Below, one piece after another: positions 5,373-14,540 of a stretch of 64,000 nucleotides of DNA. Source of the DNA: Escherichia coli (GTDB lineage Bacteria > Pseudomonadota > Gammaproteobacteria > Enterobacterales > Enterobacteriaceae); NCBI RefSeq assembly GCF_029227855.1, contig NZ_CP074356.1; one strand, given 5' to 3'. The position numbers were made by a program, and so were the translations under genes. The notes beneath the pieces were generated by a model. It did not search any database, was not told the DNA's origin, and was given only the letters and a program-made list of their open reading frames with translations. Position 1 is the first letter of the stretch. The number at the start of each line of letters is the position of its first letter.

Positions 5373-7202
5373 CTACTCTTCGTCATCGCCATCAACATGC
5401 GCACGAATCAGCGCCATAAACGGTTTGCCAAAGCGTTCCAGCTTGCGCATCCCAACACCGTTAACGCTGAGCATTTCGCTGGCGGTGATCGGCATCTGTT
5501 CAGCCATCTCAATCAAGGTTGCGTCGTTAAACACCACGTACGGCGGGACATTACTTTCATCGGCAATCGATTTACGCAGTTTGCGTAATTTGGCGAACAG
5601 TTTGCGATCATAGTTGCCGCCGAACGATTTCTGCATCGCTTTCGGTTTGAGCGCCACGATACGCGGCACGGCAAGTTGCAAAGAGGATTCGCCGCGCAGC
5701 ACCGGACGCGCGGCCTCTGTCAGTTGGAGGGCAGAATGCTGGGCAATATTTTGCGTCACCAGGCCGAGGTGAATCAACTGGCGGATCACGCTCACCCAAT
5801 GTTCATGACTTTTATCACGGCCCATACCGTAGACTTTTAGTTTGTCATGACCATAGTCGCGGATACGCTGGTTATTAGCGCCGCGAATCACTTCCACCAC
5901 ATAGCCCATACCAAAACGCTGATTCACACGACCAATGGTGGAAAGGGCAATCTGAGCATCGGTTGAACCGTCGTACTGTTTCGGCGGATCGAGGCAGATA
6001 TCGCAGTTCCCGCACGGCTCCTGACGCCCTTCGCCAAAATAGTTCAGCAGTACCAGACGACGGCAAGTTTGCGCTTCGGCAAAAGCGCCCATCGCATTGA
6101 GTTTATGACGTTCGATATCCTGCAACTGCCCCTGCGGCTTCTCTTCCAGACAACGGCGCAGCCACGCCATATCGGCCGGATCGTAAAACAGCATCGCTTC
6201 CGCGGGCAGGCCATCACGCCCGGCGCGACCGGTTTCCTGATAATAGGATTCGATATTGCGCGGAATATCAAAGTGGACCACGAAGCGAACGTTTGGTTTA
6301 TTGATGCCCATGCCGAACGCCACCGTCGCCACCACAATTTGCAGGTCATCGCGCTGGAATTTCTCCTGCACGTCGGCGCGGACATTATTTTCCAGCCCGG
6401 CATGATAGGCCGCCGCGCTAATACCCTTGCTTTGCAGGCGCGCAGCGGTGTCTTCTACTTTCGCCCGGCTGTTGCAGTAGATAATGCCGGACTTACCGCG
6501 CTGTTCCTGCACGTAGCGCATCAACTGATCGAGCGGTTTGAACTTCTCCATCAGCATGTAGCGAATATTCGGACGGTCAAAACTGTTGATTTGAATCAGC
6601 GGATCGTTCAGCCCCAGCAGGCGCACGATATCCTGGCGCGTGGTGTCGTCGGCTGTGGCGGTCAGCGCCATAAACGGCAGCGTCGGGAACCGCTGGCGCA
6701 ACTGACCGAGCGCGGCATATTCCGGGCGGAAATCGTGGCCCCATTGGGAGATACAGTGCGCTTCATCAACGGCTAATAACACCGGATTCCAGTGCGCCAG
6801 ATGCTCAAGAAAGTTATCCAGCATCAGGCGTTCCGGGGCGATATAAAGCAGACGAATTTGCCCGGTGCGGCAGCCTGTCATCACTTCAAGTTGCTGTTCG
6901 CGGGTTTGCGTCGAGTTAAGGCACGCCGCCGCCACGCCGTTGGCTTGCAGTTGATCCACCTGATCTTTCATCAACGAAATCAGCGGTGAAACAACCACGG
7001 TAAGGCCGTTTAGCAATAAGGCAGGAATTTGATAGCAAAGGGATTTTCCGCCACCGGTGGGCATGACGACCAGGCAATCGCGACCGGAAAGCACAGTGTC
7101 GATAATTTCTTCCTGGCCGGGGCGAAACTGTTGGTAGCCAAAGGTTTCTTGTAAAACCTGTTTAGCTCCGGACTCCAGATTCAACACTTCCGCCTGCGCC
7201 AC
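5373..7202 (-). CDS. recQ: ATP-dependent DNA helicase RecQ
   Basis: Walker A ([11 protein letters not shown]), DEAH box ([15 protein letters not shown]), zinc-binding CGNCDIC and C-terminal HRDC region; the ORF could start 2 codons earlier (7208). Confidence 0.93.
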
Positions 7203-8887: not shown

Positions 8888-9775
8888 ATGGATGCAAAAC
8901 AAACGCGGCAGGGCGTATTACTCGCTCTTGCCGCTTATTTTATTTGGGGTATAGCGCCAGCGTACTTCAAGTTGATTTACTACGTGCCTGCCGATGAAAT
9001 CCTGACGCATCGCGTGATCTGGTCGTTTTTCTTTATGGTGGTGCTGATGAGCATTTGCCGCCAGTGGTCCTATTTAAAAACGCTGATTCAGACGCCACAG
9101 AAAATTTTTATGCTGGCAGTCTCTGCCGTGCTGATTGGTGGCAACTGGCTACTGTTTATCTGGGCGGTGAACAATCACCATATGCTGGAAGCGAGCCTTG
9201 GTTACTTTATTAACCCGCTGGTGAACATTGTGCTGGGGATGATTTTCCTCGGCGAGCGATTCCGCCGGATGCAATGGCTGGCGGTGATTCTGGCGATATG
9301 TGGCGTGTTAGTCCAGCTGTGGACTTTTGGTTCGCTACCTATTATCGCGCTGGGACTGGCATTTAGTTTTGCCTTCTACGGTCTGGTACGCAAGAAGATT
9401 GCCGTTGAAGCGCAAACCGGCATGTTAATCGAAACCATGTGGCTGCTGCCCGTGGCGGCAATTTACCTGTTTGCTATTGCCGACAGCTCAACCAGCCATA
9501 TGGGGCAAAACCCGATGTCGCTGAATTTACTGCTGATCGCCGCCGGTATTGTCACTACCGTACCGCTGTTGTGTTTTACCGCCGCTGCCACGCGCTTGCG
9601 TCTCTCAACGTTAGGCTTTTTCCAGTACATTGGCCCGACGCTGATGTTCCTGCTGGCTGTGACGTTTTATGGTGAAAAACCGGGTGCCGATAAGATGGTG
9701 ACTTTCGCCTTTATTTGGGTGGCGCTGGCAATTTTTGTGATGGATGCGATTTATACGCAGCGTAGAAAAAGTTAA
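8888..9775 (+). CDS. rarD: EamA-family permease RarD
   Basis: 295-aa, 10-TM-like hydrophobic ORF; synteny. Confidence 0.9.
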   Translation: MDAKQTRQGVLLALAAYFIWGIAPAYFKLIYYVPADEILTHRVIWSFFFMVVLMSICRQWSYLKTLIQTPQKIFMLAVSAVLIGGNWLLFIWAVNNHHMLEASLGYFINPLVNIVLGMIFLGERFRRMQWLAVILAICGVLVQLWTFGSLPIIALGLAFSFAFYGLVRKKIAVEAQTGMLIETMWLLPVAAIYLFAIADSSTSHMGQNPMSLNLLLIAAGIVTTVPLLCFTAAATRLRLSTLGFFQYIGPTLMFLLAVTFYGEKPGADKMVTFAFIWVALAIFVMDAIYTQRRKS

Positions 9776-9821
9776 GAATTAACATGGGTAGGCCGTTTAA
9801 AGAGCCTACCCACTGACTTAT

Positions 9822-10136
9822 TTATCTTTTTTTGAAAAAAATTAAGATAAGAAAAAGAACAATATTTGTTACAGGAAATACCCCCAAAACTCCCCAGTAC
9901 TTACTCCATCCTAGAGACATCGTATATCTACCAAGGATTTGACAAAACCCAAAACTTAACCCTATACCTATACTTCTTAAATTTAATGTCGTAGTCAGGC
10001 TTAAAATAAATAGAACAAGGATGGTAATAGCCCACCACAATAACCATGCCTTAACAAAATCAGATTTTTTGCTGTAAGGTTCTTTACCCAAGAACAACTG
10101 CCAAAAGTTACCATTTCCCATATAGAATCCATTCAC
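9822..10136 (-). CDS. small hypothetical membrane protein (104 aa, GTG start), low-GC
   Basis: ORF with 2-3 predicted TM segments (AWLLWWAITILVLFILSLTT; VLGVFPVTNIVLFLILIFF); AT-rich; may correspond to one of the small yigF/yigG-type genes of this interval, but I cannot verify that. Confidence 0.4.
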   Translation of the reverse strand: MNGFYMGNGNFWQLFLGKEPYSKKSDFVKAWLLWWAITILVLFILSLTTTLNLRSIGIGLSFGFCQILGRYTMSLGWSKYWGVLGVFPVTNIVLFLILIFFKKR

Positions 10137-10333
10137 CCAAGATATTGTTTATAGAATAAAAATACATTTCAATTATATTTAATTAAAATATACCCCATCA
10201 ATAAAAACTTACACACTCTAAATTACTACTGTATAGTTATCAATGCAAAGACTGCTATATTGCATATATATATGCAAACCACATAATTCAGGTAATATAT
10301 ATTCAAAACAATTATATATAAAACAGTGTAAAA

Positions 10334-10720
10334 ATGTTCAAATTATCCATCAGAAATATATTCTACCCATCCAGGCTTGAGCGTTTATCACGCTTTCAGT
10401 TCATAATCTATACATTAACATCATGGTCAATATTAATAACTTTGAATGATATCAACCTGGCTTTGAGTTTTATTCTGGTTATTAATAATACCTATGTAAA
10501 TATCAATATTGGAGCAAAAAGAATAAGAGATACTGGATGTAAGGCAATCTACTTTGTATTGATTTCATTGGGCTTGACACTTTTTTCTATTATCTCTGCA
10601 GCAATTGAAGGGATGAGATGTGAGTCATTAAGCGTCCAACTCAACGTGGCATGGATATTATTCACAACAATTATGTTATCTGCGATTCCCTCGGCTAAAA
10701 TGTCGCTGTCAGCACACTAA
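10334..10720 (+). CDS. small hypothetical inner membrane protein (128 aa), low-GC
   Basis: ORF with about 4 hydrophobic segments, preceded by a very AT-rich 200 bp region; ends 25 bp before the duplicated corA 3' fragment (convergent). Confidence 0.45.
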   Translation: MFKLSIRNIFYPSRLERLSRFQFIIYTLTSWSILITLNDINLALSFILVINNTYVNINIGAKRIRDTGCKAIYFVLISLGLTLFSIISAAIEGMRCESLSVQLNVAWILFTTIMLSAIPSAKMSLSAH

Positions 10721-10744
10721 CTTACTCACAGCGACATCGTATAG

Positions 10745-10883
10745 TTACAGCCAGTTCTTACGCTTAAAGTACAGATACGGTGTCAGGCCCGCGAGGATCA
10801 TAAAGATAATCGCGCCAGGGTAGCCGAAGCCCCACTTCAGTTCTGGCATAAACTCAAAGTTCATGCCATAGCTGGAGGCAATC
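10745..10883 (-). pseudogene. duplicated 3' fragment of corA (last ~46 codons and stop)
   Basis: About 135-140 bp nearly identical (about 8 mismatches) to 12456..12595 at the true corA 3' end; encodes ...[43 protein letters not shown] versus ...[29 protein letters not shown] in intact corA. Confidence 0.8.
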
Positions 10884-11071
10884 CGCGTAGGAAAAAGTTT
10901 CCTAATCGGTAAATTCAACATTTTGTTATTAACAATGAGCAAGACCAATCATTAACGAGGTTCTCTTCAGAGATGTAATGAAAAAATGTGAAGTTTACTT
11001 CTTTTTTAAATATTTTTTTACCCTAGCATTTGTTCTCGAATTGATATTGAGCTTAAATATAACCAAGGCAA

Positions 11072-11926
11072 ATGCAAATGAATAACATATTACTTCCGCC
11101 AATTAATATTCCCTGTACACTTTTCGAAACTATTAGTTTATTCGATGATTTTTCTGCTGATGATATGCAATATGGTGATATGGTAGAACAAGACTTTCTC
11201 TCACTCGGCCTAAGCGATATCTCAGCAAAAGTTGATCCTTACAGACTTATTAAATACCATTTCCCTGGCCCAGGTTCTATTAATGTTGCTTTTAGTGCCT
11301 CAAGTTCCGGAACAAAAATATCACAACGTGAATGCACTGATATTTTATTTGCAGAAATGAAAGAACTAGCAAAAATGCTTTCCTTTTTTGGACAATATAA
11401 AACACTTATCGAAGATCTGATTGAACATTTTAGATATGGAAATGGCAGCAATTTTCATAGCCAACAATTAAATTTATCTTTTCATGAAAAAATAAATAAA
11501 TATGGTTATAATAGTCCAATACGAATAATCAAAGAATGTATCGAAAATGGCATTAATTCAACTCCCTCGACAGGATACCAACCTCTTATCCTGCAAAGCA
11601 TTAAAACCAAATTACTTTCATCAAGACTAAATAAATTTAATGACTTCGAGGACAGTTTTAATGGCTTAGGAATCAGTGTTCATGATATTTCAGCTCAAAA
11701 AATATCTCTTTTAAGTTTTCAAAAATACGCTATAGGATGGAGTGCAACAATTCATTTTGTAGCACAGGACCACTTCGGTCTTGATGTAACTGATATCAAA
11801 AACAAGACTTACAGCAAATATAGATTTTTTCGCATATGGTTCTTTTTACAACGGCATAAAGACTTTGCTTTCAAACCTTTTTTCACCAATTTTAACACTA
11901 TCGAAAGAATCGAAAATTATCTATGA
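11072..11926 (+). CDS. hypothetical protein, 284 aa, no recognisable motif; first gene of a low-GC two-gene cassette
   Basis: Long ORF in a region of about one-third G+C; AAGG Shine-Dalgarno 7 nt upstream; no signal peptide or TM segment evident; stop overlaps the start of the next ORF (ATGA). Confidence 0.6.
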   Translation: MQMNNILLPPINIPCTLFETISLFDDFSADDMQYGDMVEQDFLSLGLSDISAKVDPYRLIKYHFPGPGSINVAFSASSSGTKISQRECTDILFAEMKELAKMLSFFGQYKTLIEDLIEHFRYGNGSNFHSQQLNLSFHEKINKYGYNSPIRIIKECIENGINSTPSTGYQPLILQSIKTKLLSSRLNKFNDFEDSFNGLGISVHDISAQKISLLSFQKYAIGWSATIHFVAQDHFGLDVTDIKNKTYSKYRFFRIWFFLQRHKDFAFKPFFTNFNTIERIENYL

Positions 11927-12414
11927 AAAGCAAACTCCAGAAAATTATATTATGTTTATTTCTTCTATGCTGCATCTATAATTTATGGACATTGCGTCCT
12001 GTACAGATTTTGTATACATACTCTGATGCTGGCAATTCAGTCTTTCTGGTCGTTGATCATCTGCCATGGACTGACAGCGATAAAATAAATTGGTATCTGA
12101 AGCATCAGAATGAAATTAAAAATCAACATCCCCTACCAGAAGGTAGTTGGCATACCTGGTATGTCATTGATATCGGTAATGGCTTCACTGACTATAAAAA
12201 ATATATCGAAGGGCCGTATGAAGATCTCTACTGTTTCCCGACAATTAAGAGCAATGATAATTGCATCGTGAAAAATTACTTAATGGTTATTAATGAATAC
12301 CCTTATCGTAACACTCATATTGGTATTAACGATTTTACTGAGTATCAATTAACACAAGAAAATAAAATAGAGCGAGTTTTCAATCCGCATGACTTTAAAT
12401 ACGACAATTTTTAG
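11923..12414 (+). CDS. hypothetical protein, 163 aa, with N-terminal signal peptide or membrane anchor; second gene of the cassette
   Basis: N-terminus MKSKLQKIILCLFLLCCIYNLWTL (basic then hydrophobic); Tyr/Trp/Asn-rich remainder; translationally coupled to the upstream ORF; ends 41 bp before the corA stop (convergent). Confidence 0.6.
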   Translation: MKSKLQKIILCLFLLCCIYNLWTLRPVQILYTYSDAGNSVFLVVDHLPWTDSDKINWYLKHQNEIKNQHPLPEGSWHTWYVIDIGNGFTDYKKYIEGPYEDLYCFPTIKSNDNCIVKNYLMVINEYPYRNTHIGINDFTEYQLTQENKIERVFNPHDFKYDNF

Positions 12415-12455
12415 AAATAAGCCGGATAAAAAAATAGCTTTATCCGGCACTCATA

Positions 12456-13406
12456 TTACAGCCAGTTCTTGCGCTTAAAGTACAGATACGGTGCCAGGCC
12501 CGCGAGGATCATAAAGATAATCGCGCCTGGGTAGCCGAAACTCCACTTCAGTTCTGGCATAAACTCAAAGTTCATCCCATAGCTGGAAGCAACGAGCGTC
12601 GGCGGCAGGAATACCACGGATACCACCGAGAAGATTTTGATGATGCGGTTCTGCTCGATGTTGATAAAGCCCATCGCCGCCTGCATCAGGAAGTTCACCT
12701 TCTGGAACAGGGATTCGTTATGCGGCAGCAGGGATTCGATATCTCGCAGGATTTCACGCGCCTGCTCCAGTTGCCCACCCGGTAAACGCGCCTTGCGTAC
12801 CAGGAAGTTGAGCGCACGCTGGGTATCCATCAGACACAGGCGAACTTTCCAGCCGATATCTTCCAGTTCCGCCAGCGTGGAGAGCGCCTCATCGTACTCA
12901 TCGCCCTGATGCCCTTCCATAATTACCCGGCTCAACTGCTCCAGATCGCTGTAGATATTTTCAATTTCATCTGCCAGCTGTTCGATTTTGGTTTCGAACA
13001 GATCCAACAGCAGCTCGTAGGCGTTACCGTCCACCATTGACTGGCTACGGGCGCGCATACGATACAGACGGAATGCAGGCAGTTCACGCTCACGCAGAGT
13101 AAACAGACGACCATCACGGATGGTAAATGCCACAGTGGAGTTACCGGCGTGATCTTCCGCATCTTCAAAGAAGAAGAAGGAGTGAATATGCAGGCCGTCA
13201 TCGTCTTCAAAGAAACGTGCCGATGCTTCGATGTCTTCCAGTTCCGGGCGGGTTGCCAGGCTCTGGCCAAGTTCAGATTGTACGCGCAGTCGCTCGTCGT
13301 CGTCCGGTTCGACAAGATCAATCCATACTGCATTTACAAGGGGTTGTGACTCTTCGACTTCCAGCCGGGTCAGTCGGTTATTTTCCAGTTGAAATGCGCT
13401 CAGCAT
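12456..13406 (-). CDS. corA: Mg2+/Co2+ transport protein CorA
   Basis: 316 aa from [12 protein letters not shown]; C-terminal TM helices with the YGMNF signature (GMN motif). Confidence 0.93.
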
Positions 13407-13775
13407 GACCGGGACTCCCAATGCTTAAAATATCGGACAGTTCGGTGGGCACACAGAAACAAATTGGGTTTCAGACCATTAAACAGCCTGACTCAGCGCG
13501 ACGGGAAAAATTGAGGTCGCTGACAACCGCTAAGGCTATCAGCAAAAAGGGATAGCCTTAGGAGTTGATCCTGGATGACAGGATAGTGAGCCAGTATCTA
13601 CTGGGTGTGTCCAAGGCGAATGTCCTCTTAGAGTGATCGTGCGCGCATGTTACGCCAGCAAAATTTTGCCGTCAACACGCAACAGAACACCACAGAACAA
13701 TAGTTGAACTTCGCGCTTTTTGGTACTCGTCAAGGTCGCTAACAGGATAAAAAAATCCAACATCCAGGACCTATA

Positions 13776-14540
13776 ATGGCGCATCGGCTACTCATTGGTA
13801 AAGGAATGATCACCTTGAATCTCAAACGGATTTTTCTCGCCCTCACCTTACTTCCCTTGTTTGCTGTTGCCGCTGATGATTGCGCACTCTCAGATCCGAC
13901 GCTGACCGTACAGGCGTATACCGTTAATCCTCAAACAGAGCGGGTGAAAATGTACTGGCAAAAAGCCAATGGCGAAGCGTGGGGAACTTTACATGCTCTG
14001 CTGGCGGATATGAATAGTCAGGGTCAGGTGCAGATGGCGATGAACGGCGGCATCTATGATGAAAGCTATGCGCCGCTCGGTTTGTACATCGAAAACGGTC
14101 AGCAGAAGGTGGCGTTAAATCTCGCTTCAGGTGAAGGGAATTTCTTTATCCGTCCTGGCGGCGAGTTTTATGTCGCGGGAGATAAAGTCGGCATCGTTCG
14201 TCTGGATGCCTTCAAAACCAGTAAAGAGATTCAGTTTGCGGTGCAGTCAGGGCCAATGTTGATGGAAAACAGTGTAATTAATCCGCGTATTCATCCCAAC
14301 GTCGCCTCACGTAAAATTCGTAACGGTGTTGGGATTAATAAACATGGGAATGCCGTGTTTTTGTTGAGCCAGCAGGCGACAAATTTTTATGATTTTGCCT
14401 GTTATGCCAAAGCGAAACTGAACGTTGAGCAGCTGCTTTATCTTGATGGCACGATTTCACATATGTATATGAAAGGCGGGGCAATCCCGTGGCAACGCTA
14501 TCCTTTTGTCACCATGATTTCCGTAGAGCGGAAAGGTTAA
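13776..14540 (+). CDS. yigE: conserved protein of unknown function (YigE-like), probable signal peptide
   Basis: 254-aa ORF with an N-terminal hydrophobic region (IFLALTLLPLFAVAADD); synteny between corA and uvrD. Confidence 0.8.
   Translation: MAHRLLIGKGMITLNLKRIFLALTLLPLFAVAADDCALSDPTLTVQAYTVNPQTERVKMYWQKANGEAWGTLHALLADMNSQGQVQMAMNGGIYDESYAPLGLYIENGQQKVALNLASGEGNFFIRPGGEFYVAGDKVGIVRLDAFKTSKEIQFAVQSGPMLMENSVINPRIHPNVASRKIRNGVGINKHGNAVFLLSQQATNFYDFACYAKAKLNVEQLLYLDGTISHMYMKGGAIPWQRYPFVTMISVERKG

Follow-up and report, generated by a model that had tools for sequence, protein, structure and literature searches.

A 67-codon open reading frame beside corA in Escherichia coli is very probably a relic of a displaced corA tail

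Introduction

Elements that integrate at the 3' ends of genes classically leave a repeat of the target 3' end and supply a replacement tail, as at e14/icd and at tRNA-gene islands. In Escherichia coli K-12, icdC is reportedly the 3' fragment of icd displaced by the integration of e14. The corA locus described here resembles icdC/e14 in that a housekeeping gene has received an insert at its 3' end, together with a replacement tail of slightly altered sequence, while the old tail persists as a far-side repeat pseudogene. It differs in the nature of the insert: e14 is prophage-like, with an integrase and an att site, whereas the corA insert is a 1.56-kb two-gene module with no recombinase.

At rhs and cdiA loci, a new module replaces the 3' end of the gene, and the old toxin tip and its immunity gene are pushed downstream without a promoter. 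The displaced piece at those loci is a toxin tip, whereas here it is the tail of the neighbouring housekeeping gene, corA. A further parallel is homology-facilitated illegitimate recombination, which is said to have been defined experimentally in Acinetobacter transformation. The corA product has the corresponding structure, with one end anchored by homology in corA and the other at the microhomology CC-ACGC, although at corA the process is reconstructed from the structure of its product alone.

The genes of the insert belong to families with described functions. DUF3289 is a colicin-M-like toxin that acts in the periplasm, with DUF943 as its immunity protein (PMC11148199), and Aeromonas jandaei possesses a DUF3289 protein that is a genuine T6SS effector (PMC12135965). 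The E. coli pair resembles the pairs of both studies in its strong Pfam matches and in its effector-then-immunity order, and differs in being an orphan pair.

Here we analyze a 64,000-nt stretch of E. coli DNA (contig NZ_CP074356.1 of assembly GCF_029227855.1; hereafter, the window), in which a short open reading frame (ORF) on the far side of this insert ends in the last codons of corA. We conclude that the ORF is very probably a non-functional relic of the corA tail, displaced by the effector-immunity module.

The ORF and its corA-derived part

The ORF spans 10745-10948 on the minus strand and comprises 67 codons; the ORF list and the sequence itself agree with the protein quoted in a preliminary description of this DNA. 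Its TTG start codon is directly preceded by TAA TGA, and an ATG at 10921 (codon 10) would yield a 58-amino-acid form. A repeat search revealed a 147-nt direct repeat, 93% identical, between 10745-10891 and 12456-12602, confirming the proposed displaced corA 3' fragment 1.7 kb from the intact gene. The left copy (10745-10891, minus strand) is identified as the displaced, ancestral corA 3' end by this repeat, by BLAST, by profile matches and by its PGAP annotation as a pseudogene. The two copies agree poorly at the beginning of the repeat, where the first ~10-15 nt contain five mismatched positions (CCTACGCGGATTGCC in one copy vs CCGACGCTCGTTGCT in the other), and the BLAST alignment spans only 137 nt. 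Clean homology thus begins near 10881, and about 45 residues of the ORF are CorA-derived.

Profile searches place these residues at the very end of CorA. The Pfam CorA profile matches the ORF at 46.1 bits over positions 246-292 of 292, and TIGR00383 matches it at 78.4 bits (cut-off 200.75) over profile positions 273-320 of 320 only. The CorA-derived residues run from the end of TM1, with YGMNF, through the MPEL loop and TM2 to the C-terminal KRKNWL, so that both the GMN motif and the last transmembrane helix attributed to the ORF can be read in the window copy. The ORF does not encode a functional CorA channel, since it has no N-terminal cytoplasmic domain and only its ~45-48 C-terminal residues come from CorA.

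The remainder is a 19-codon N-terminal extension (10892-10948, minus strand) of insert-derived, AT-rich DNA, which is unrelated to CorA and too polar to form a membrane helix. Hydropathy analysis leaves TM2 as the sole segment hydrophobic enough for that role, and the N-terminal part of the ORF carries four basic residues, K9, R16, K17 and R22. The coordinates, the sequence and the CorA tail given in the preliminary description hold; its start codon (TTG, not ATG), the extent of the repeat and the shortness of the extension required correction. The frame does run on into the AT-rich insert, as had been described, for 19 codons. In the AT-rich DNA at 9800-12450, a run of 19 or more open codons precedes 36% of positions, and an open extension of this length is therefore no more than expected by chance.

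Past the stop codon of the fragment, 10700-10738 (minus strand) can fold into a hairpin (−27.2 kcal/mol, z −4.0) followed by UUUU, which looks like a terminator shared by the fragment and a convergent plus-strand ORF ending at 10720. The latter, a 128-aa ORF at 10334-10720 (+), is distantly homologous to YigG (27% identity, E 9e-8; NF008474, E 8e-6) and has no PGAP annotation in any carrier examined. It lies in a stretch, 9776-10744, where other AT-rich DNA (26-37% GC) replaces yigF-yigG, both here and in O157:H7. The same stretch contains a membrane ORF of 99-104 aa at 9822-10136 (−), annotated as 'hypothetical'.

The module between the two corA tails

An AT-rich spacer (10949-11077), about 83% identical to the same DNA in strains that lack the fragment, separates the ORF from a divergent gene for a DUF3289/YPO3983 family protein at 11078-11926 on the plus strand (Pfam PF11692, E 1.5e-83; TIGR03034, 436.6 bits). 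This gene is followed in the same orientation, with a 4-nt overlap, by a gene at 11923-12414 (+) for a protein of DUF943 (PF06092, E 1.6e-26), the immunity family for DUF3289, so that the effector comes first. The Pfam matches and the published roles of the families identify the insert as an orphan effector-immunity pair, by family of the type VI kind, whose secretion and toxicity are predicted. No T6SS genes were found beside the pair in the stretch examined, hence the term orphan. DUF3289 and DUF943 are the only products encoded in the 1.56-kb insert, which contains no integrase, recombinase or remnant of either in any carrier examined.

Beyond the pair, the intact corA gene has its own intrinsic terminator, a hairpin at 12421-12448 (−) unlike that of K-12 corA. 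The right repeat copy, 12456-12602 (−), is the working corA 3' end. The intact gene itself occupies 12456-13406 (−), is 951 nt long and encodes WP_000947159.1. In the mechanical ORF list corA begins at a TTG at 13421, and the RefSeq start is the ATG at 13406. A small leader ORF, ysgD (corL), is annotated upstream of corA at 13558-13614 (−).

The occurrence of DUF3289 proteins elsewhere was surveyed in a scan of one genome per species, which returned nine loci; the E. coli representative of that scan lacks the module. In Salmonella enterica subsp. arizonae and diarizonae (L016 and L019, 3873-7336) a 65-74%-identical pair is present, with neither yigF/yigG nor a displaced corA tail; the diarizonae effector matches in two overlapping segments and may be frameshifted or mosaic. 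In Trabulsiella guamensis (L020, 5001-9427) and Huaxiibacter chinensis (L018, 5001-6918) additional DUF943 genes and C-terminal fragments of DUF3289 come after a full pair, forming arrays reminiscent of those of orphan toxin tips and immunity genes at rhs and cdi loci. In Enterobacter asburiae (L017, 4532-7182), 143-nt REP-like repeats that are 94% identical lie on both sides of the pair, and part of the adjacent FGGY-type kinase gene, from its 3' region, recurs after the pair at 6376-6567 as a decayed duplicate with 88-89% identity. The latter is a second case in which the 3' region of a neighbouring gene is duplicated beside a DUF3289/DUF943 module. Contigs from metagenome bins labelled 'uncultured Alistipes sp.' and 'uncultured Clostridium sp.' are 99% identical to the locus, corA fragment included, and are almost certainly mis-binned E. 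coli DNA.

Origin of the displaced tail

The context of the two copies differs in a manner that reveals which is ancestral. In four strains that retain yigF-yigG, the K-12 corA terminator and yigF come next after the displaced fragment; after the intact corA gene come another hairpin and DUF943. In every carrier of the module, the 3'-terminal 147 nt of intact corA differ from K-12 by 3.4-5.4%, and the preceding 804 nt by 0.1-2.6%. In one of the four strains (L012), intact corA differs from K-12 at six positions in the last 147 nt (4.1%) and at one in the first 804 (0.12%). All differences of the right copy from K-12 are synonymous. The K-12 downstream context at the displaced copy, together with the diverged tail of intact corA, indicates that the displaced tail is the ancestral one and that the working tail and its terminator were imported.

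These observations suggest a model in which an ancestor with the K-12 arrangement, corA followed by yigF-yigG-rarD, received DNA consisting of a corA 3' part, a terminator, DUF943, DUF3289 and about 186 nt. One end of the incoming DNA would have recombined by homology inside corA, while the other would have been joined illegitimately ~137-147 nt upstream of the stop codon of the resident corA, at the imperfect microhomology CCTACGC/CCGACGC (CC-ACGC). The junction of the insert with the displaced corA tail reads AGGAAACTTTTTCCTACGCGGATTGCC. A single crossover of a circular intermediate is an alternative route that would give the same product. By either route the imported tail would complete corA, and the resident tail would be moved 1.7 kb and left without a promoter, a start codon or the other 85% of the gene. 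The frame would have remained open by chance for 19 codons into the insert, meeting a TTG and an ATG, which is why ORF finders call the fragment. Since then the fragment would have drifted neutrally and been deleted in many lineages.

A plausible donor arrangement is found in Salmonella enterica subsp. arizonae and diarizonae. There, the order is rarD-DUF3289-DUF943-corA with a single corA 3' end, and a similar hairpin (GCCGGAT...ATCCGGC) follows corA; the pair thus adjoins a lone corA tail, as the incoming DNA would have done. A donor with the same junction was not identified in the one-genome-per-species DUF3289 scan, which reached close relatives alone.

Distribution and the role of the repeats

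Of 5426 complete E. coli genomes, 2633 carry the module; 1706 of the 2633, or ~31% of all 5426, also carry the fragment with its upstream DNA. About 930 genomes carry the module and lack the fragment, with module identity falling in bands of 80-95%. This class was sampled through four genomes taken from the 88-92% bands (L003, L023, L024 and L025), all of them without the fragment and with the order rarD, a 310-bp gap, DUF3289, DUF943 and corA. In L003, the upstream DNA of the module ends ~10 nt short of the junction and is followed by the first ~87 nt of yigG, an arrangement that reflects either a separate insertion event or a deletion that took out the fragment together with yigF and the bulk of yigG. 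We considered the fragment-less state as a deletion derivative of the state seen in the window; the modules differ by 8-17%, yet the imported corA tails are nearly identical, a pattern compatible with either origin. Loss by another route is seen in E. coli EM18-18-42 (L026, 1788-2648), where IS1 replaces yigF, the corA fragment, DUF3289 and most of DUF943, and a 147-nt remnant of DUF943 is left beside corA, the product of an IS1-associated deletion. The presence of the module without the fragment in ~930 genomes and the IS1-linked loss show that the fragment is dispensable.

The interval between corA and rarD is a hotspot, with at least five arrangements. E. coli A42 (L013, 2732-2861) has no module: corA leads directly into the hairpin context that trails the fragment in the window. 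In this strain the AT-rich cassette corresponding to about 9830-10671 of the window is deleted, and 128 bp separate corA from rarD. In E. coli S1-KEN-07-A (L025, 1601-2932), DUF3289 is frameshifted and DUF943 is intact, so that the locus looks like an orphan immunity gene without its effector. Among E. coli lineages, the effector-immunity genes share 88.9-100% DNA identity (up to 11% different) and the upstream DNA differs by ~17%; the imported corA tails beside these variable modules are nearly identical, the flanking genes are highly alike and the yigI protein is identical in nearly all loci. Such a variable module between conserved flanks is consistent with a pair that is under diversifying selection or has been replaced repeatedly.

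The foremost alternative to a passive relic is that the fragment persists because the repeats serve as a recombination handle: a RecA crossover between them would excise the module precisely and restore corA, and the resulting circle, with one repeat, could re-integrate at another site through a single crossover, making the module a mobile cassette. Direct repeats of ~140 nt at 93% identity are a usable RecA substrate. Variants common to the fragment and the intact copy within one genome suggest exchange between the copies, and in L012 the donor-type corA SNPs begin only inside the repeat. The joining of corA directly to the post-fragment context in A42 is what excision would leave, although we do not take it as proof of repeat-mediated excision, as it is equally compatible with a strain that never carried the module. 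Against a selected handle, recombination is a passive property of any scar of this kind and requires no selection, and ~930 genomes keep the module without the repeat, which shows the module to be independent of it. We regard a handle function as unlikely, if the least improbable of the alternatives.

Slightly less likely still is a second alternative, in which the repeats are attL/attR-type ends of an integrative element that entered at the corA 3' end and has since been stripped of its integrase and most of its cargo. The overall architecture is the one expected, with direct repeats of the target 3' end flanking an insert that brings a working replacement tail. Three features argue otherwise: none of the carriers examined retains an integrase, a recombinase or a remnant of one in the 1.56-kb insert; homology fades into mismatches at the junction and does not end at a sharp core site; and the pair of Salmonella arizonae occupies the same interval without any repeat. 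Illegitimate joining anchored by homology, as in our preferred model of a displaced relic, appears the likelier mechanism than integration of the e14 type.

Constraint on the fragment

Selection was compared over the last 147 nt of corA in 10 fragment copies and 13 intact copies. The fragment copies contain six nonsynonymous and eight synonymous segregating sites (n = 10), the amino-acid changes being R/P, Y/D inside YGMN, S/G, A/T, Y/H and R/L. In contrast, the intact copies contain no nonsynonymous and 14 synonymous sites, the CorA protein being identical in 13/13 genomes (6N:8S vs 0N:14S, Fisher p = 0.016). The difference is sharper for sites private to the fragment (6N:3S vs the intact copy, p = 0.0008), for which the neutral expectation is ~3.4:1. 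The near-neutral ratio at private sites, coupled with the absence of amino-acid change in the intact copy, demonstrates that constraint on the fragment is relaxed, and no purifying selection on the protein of the ORF was detected. The overall 6:8 ratio in the fragment copies is lower than the neutral ratio. Five of the eight synonymous variants of the fragment also segregate in intact copies, suggesting gene conversion between the two, and conversion from the intact copy would account for the synonymous excess in the fragment.

The variation extends over the whole ORF. The 19-codon extension is polymorphic among strains (L/P, K/N and M/I), and the only upstream ATG is lost in the O157:H7 lineage. 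A 90% protein cluster containing both forms of the ORF comprises 111 distinct sequences, and the 15 cluster members listed include S to N and Y to S changes next to GMN, P to S, L to F, L to V and R to C changes, and a premature stop. The preliminary description had proposed comparing the conservation of the ORF across carriers. Amino-acid changes proved common and frame disruption rare: 10/10 haplotypes keep the frame open behind a TTG start, and the protein variants listed include one premature stop. Because 4% of possible substitutions in the ORF would create a stop, the probability that the ~18 substitutions among the sampled copies include none is 0.48; the ten open haplotypes therefore carry no weight as evidence of selection.

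The near-neutral changes and the repeated loss of the fragment support the reading that the preliminary description itself preferred, that of a decaying pseudogene. Its accompanying suggestion, that the terminus is 'not just a scar', fares poorly in view of the chance-level extension, the near-neutral changes, the lack of consensus expression signals, the loss of the ATG in O157:H7 and the ~930 carriers without the fragment. The corA fragment is an ordinary pseudogene, a neutral insertion scar.

Expression signals

A promoter and a ribosome-binding site upstream of 10948 on the minus strand had been proposed as a check on expression; no consensus match to either was found. No sigma-70 consensus match of at least 9/12 is present on the minus strand of 10949-11300, and a laxer scan upstream of 10948 on this strand gave 8/12 matches at best. 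The best predicted duplex of the TTG start with the anti-Shine-Dalgarno sequence has −2.9 kcal/mol, at a spacing of 13 nt, and the ATG has none, as compared with −6.8 kcal/mol for corA and −6.6 kcal/mol for pldA. The genes of the module are also weak in this respect (−3.0 and −0.9 kcal/mol), so that a weak Shine-Dalgarno sequence does not exclude translation in this DNA. On the same strand, the ORF is preceded by the corA terminator and by 1.5 kb of module DNA in antisense orientation. A scan of 9500-13900 against Rfam at E ≤ 1 returned two chance-level matches and no RNA family.

Ribosome-profiling data offered a further check. Among the novel translated intergenic ORFs of O157:H7 Sakai identified by Ribo-seq and annotated by blastp (PMC5597208, 15 supplements), there is no corA or magnesium entry and no peptide SSYGMNFEF. 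ORFs that were already annotated would be excluded from that study, and absence from it is therefore weak evidence. These results suggest that the ORF is probably not expressed.

The preliminary description had raised the possibility that the fragment interferes with assembly of the CorA pentamer, and nothing beyond the presence of TM2 and GMN speaks for it. For an expressed chimeric small membrane protein, with a new N-terminus fused to GMN and TM2, to modulate or poison the pentamer, weak transcription from the AT-rich divergent region would have to yield a low-abundance 58-67-aa peptide that tunes CorA Mg2+/Co2+ flux, and we consider each of these propositions highly improbable. The open frame with its TTG start in all ten haplotypes, the retention of YGMNF, the MPEL loop, TM2 and the basic C-terminus, and the terminator-like hairpin past the ORF are all compatible with a translated gene, and spurious or bidirectional initiation from the adjoining divergent, AT-rich promoter region is conceivable. 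These features are outweighed by amino-acid changes that occur freely, even in YGMN, and are absent from the intact copy, by the missing O157:H7 ATG, by the want of a consensus promoter or Shine-Dalgarno sequence, by the deletion of the fragment in ~930 module carriers and, to a small degree, by its absence from the Sakai set. Topology would pose a further difficulty, as placing the GMN loop in the periplasm would break the positive-inside rule, given K9, R16, K17 and R22. With TM2 as the sole hydrophobic helix behind four positive N-terminal charges, correct insertion beside CorA appears doubtful.

Annotation of the ORF

The corA fragment is already known as an annotated pseudogene. The region is 100% identical to the RefSeq record of E. 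coli O157:H16 Santai, in which 10745-10891 is annotated by PGAP as a pseudogene, 'CorA family divalent cation transporter, incomplete, missing N-terminus' (e.g., CH99_RS22415), and the same PGAP annotation was found in every carrier examined. Other records treat the ORF as a gene. An exact protein look-up found the 58-aa form on at least 1000 contigs as 'magnesium transporter CorA', and the 67-aa form is deposited as 'hypothetical protein EcE24377A_4339' (E24377A and others). PGAP thus annotates just the 147 CorA-derived nt, whereas in older annotations the ORF, at 58 or 67 aa, is given as a protein. A search of the literature on corA pseudogenes and fragments returned nothing on this fragment. 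The ORF was also compared with the small regulators of Mg2+ transport of the MgtS/MgtR kind: its sequence is not conserved, no expression evidence was found and no sequence relationship to them was detected.

Significance

The corA fragment is of little importance in itself. Were the peptide expressed after all, it would represent the de novo birth of a strain-specific, channel-modulating micro-protein from an insertion scar. As a relic, it explains why a third of E. coli genomes have a 58-67-aa ORF listed as 'magnesium transporter CorA', and the ORF should stay flagged as a pseudogene. The locus as a whole provides a clean example of an orphan type VI effector-immunity pair, predicted as such by family, that enters a conserved site together with a replacement end for the neighbouring gene.
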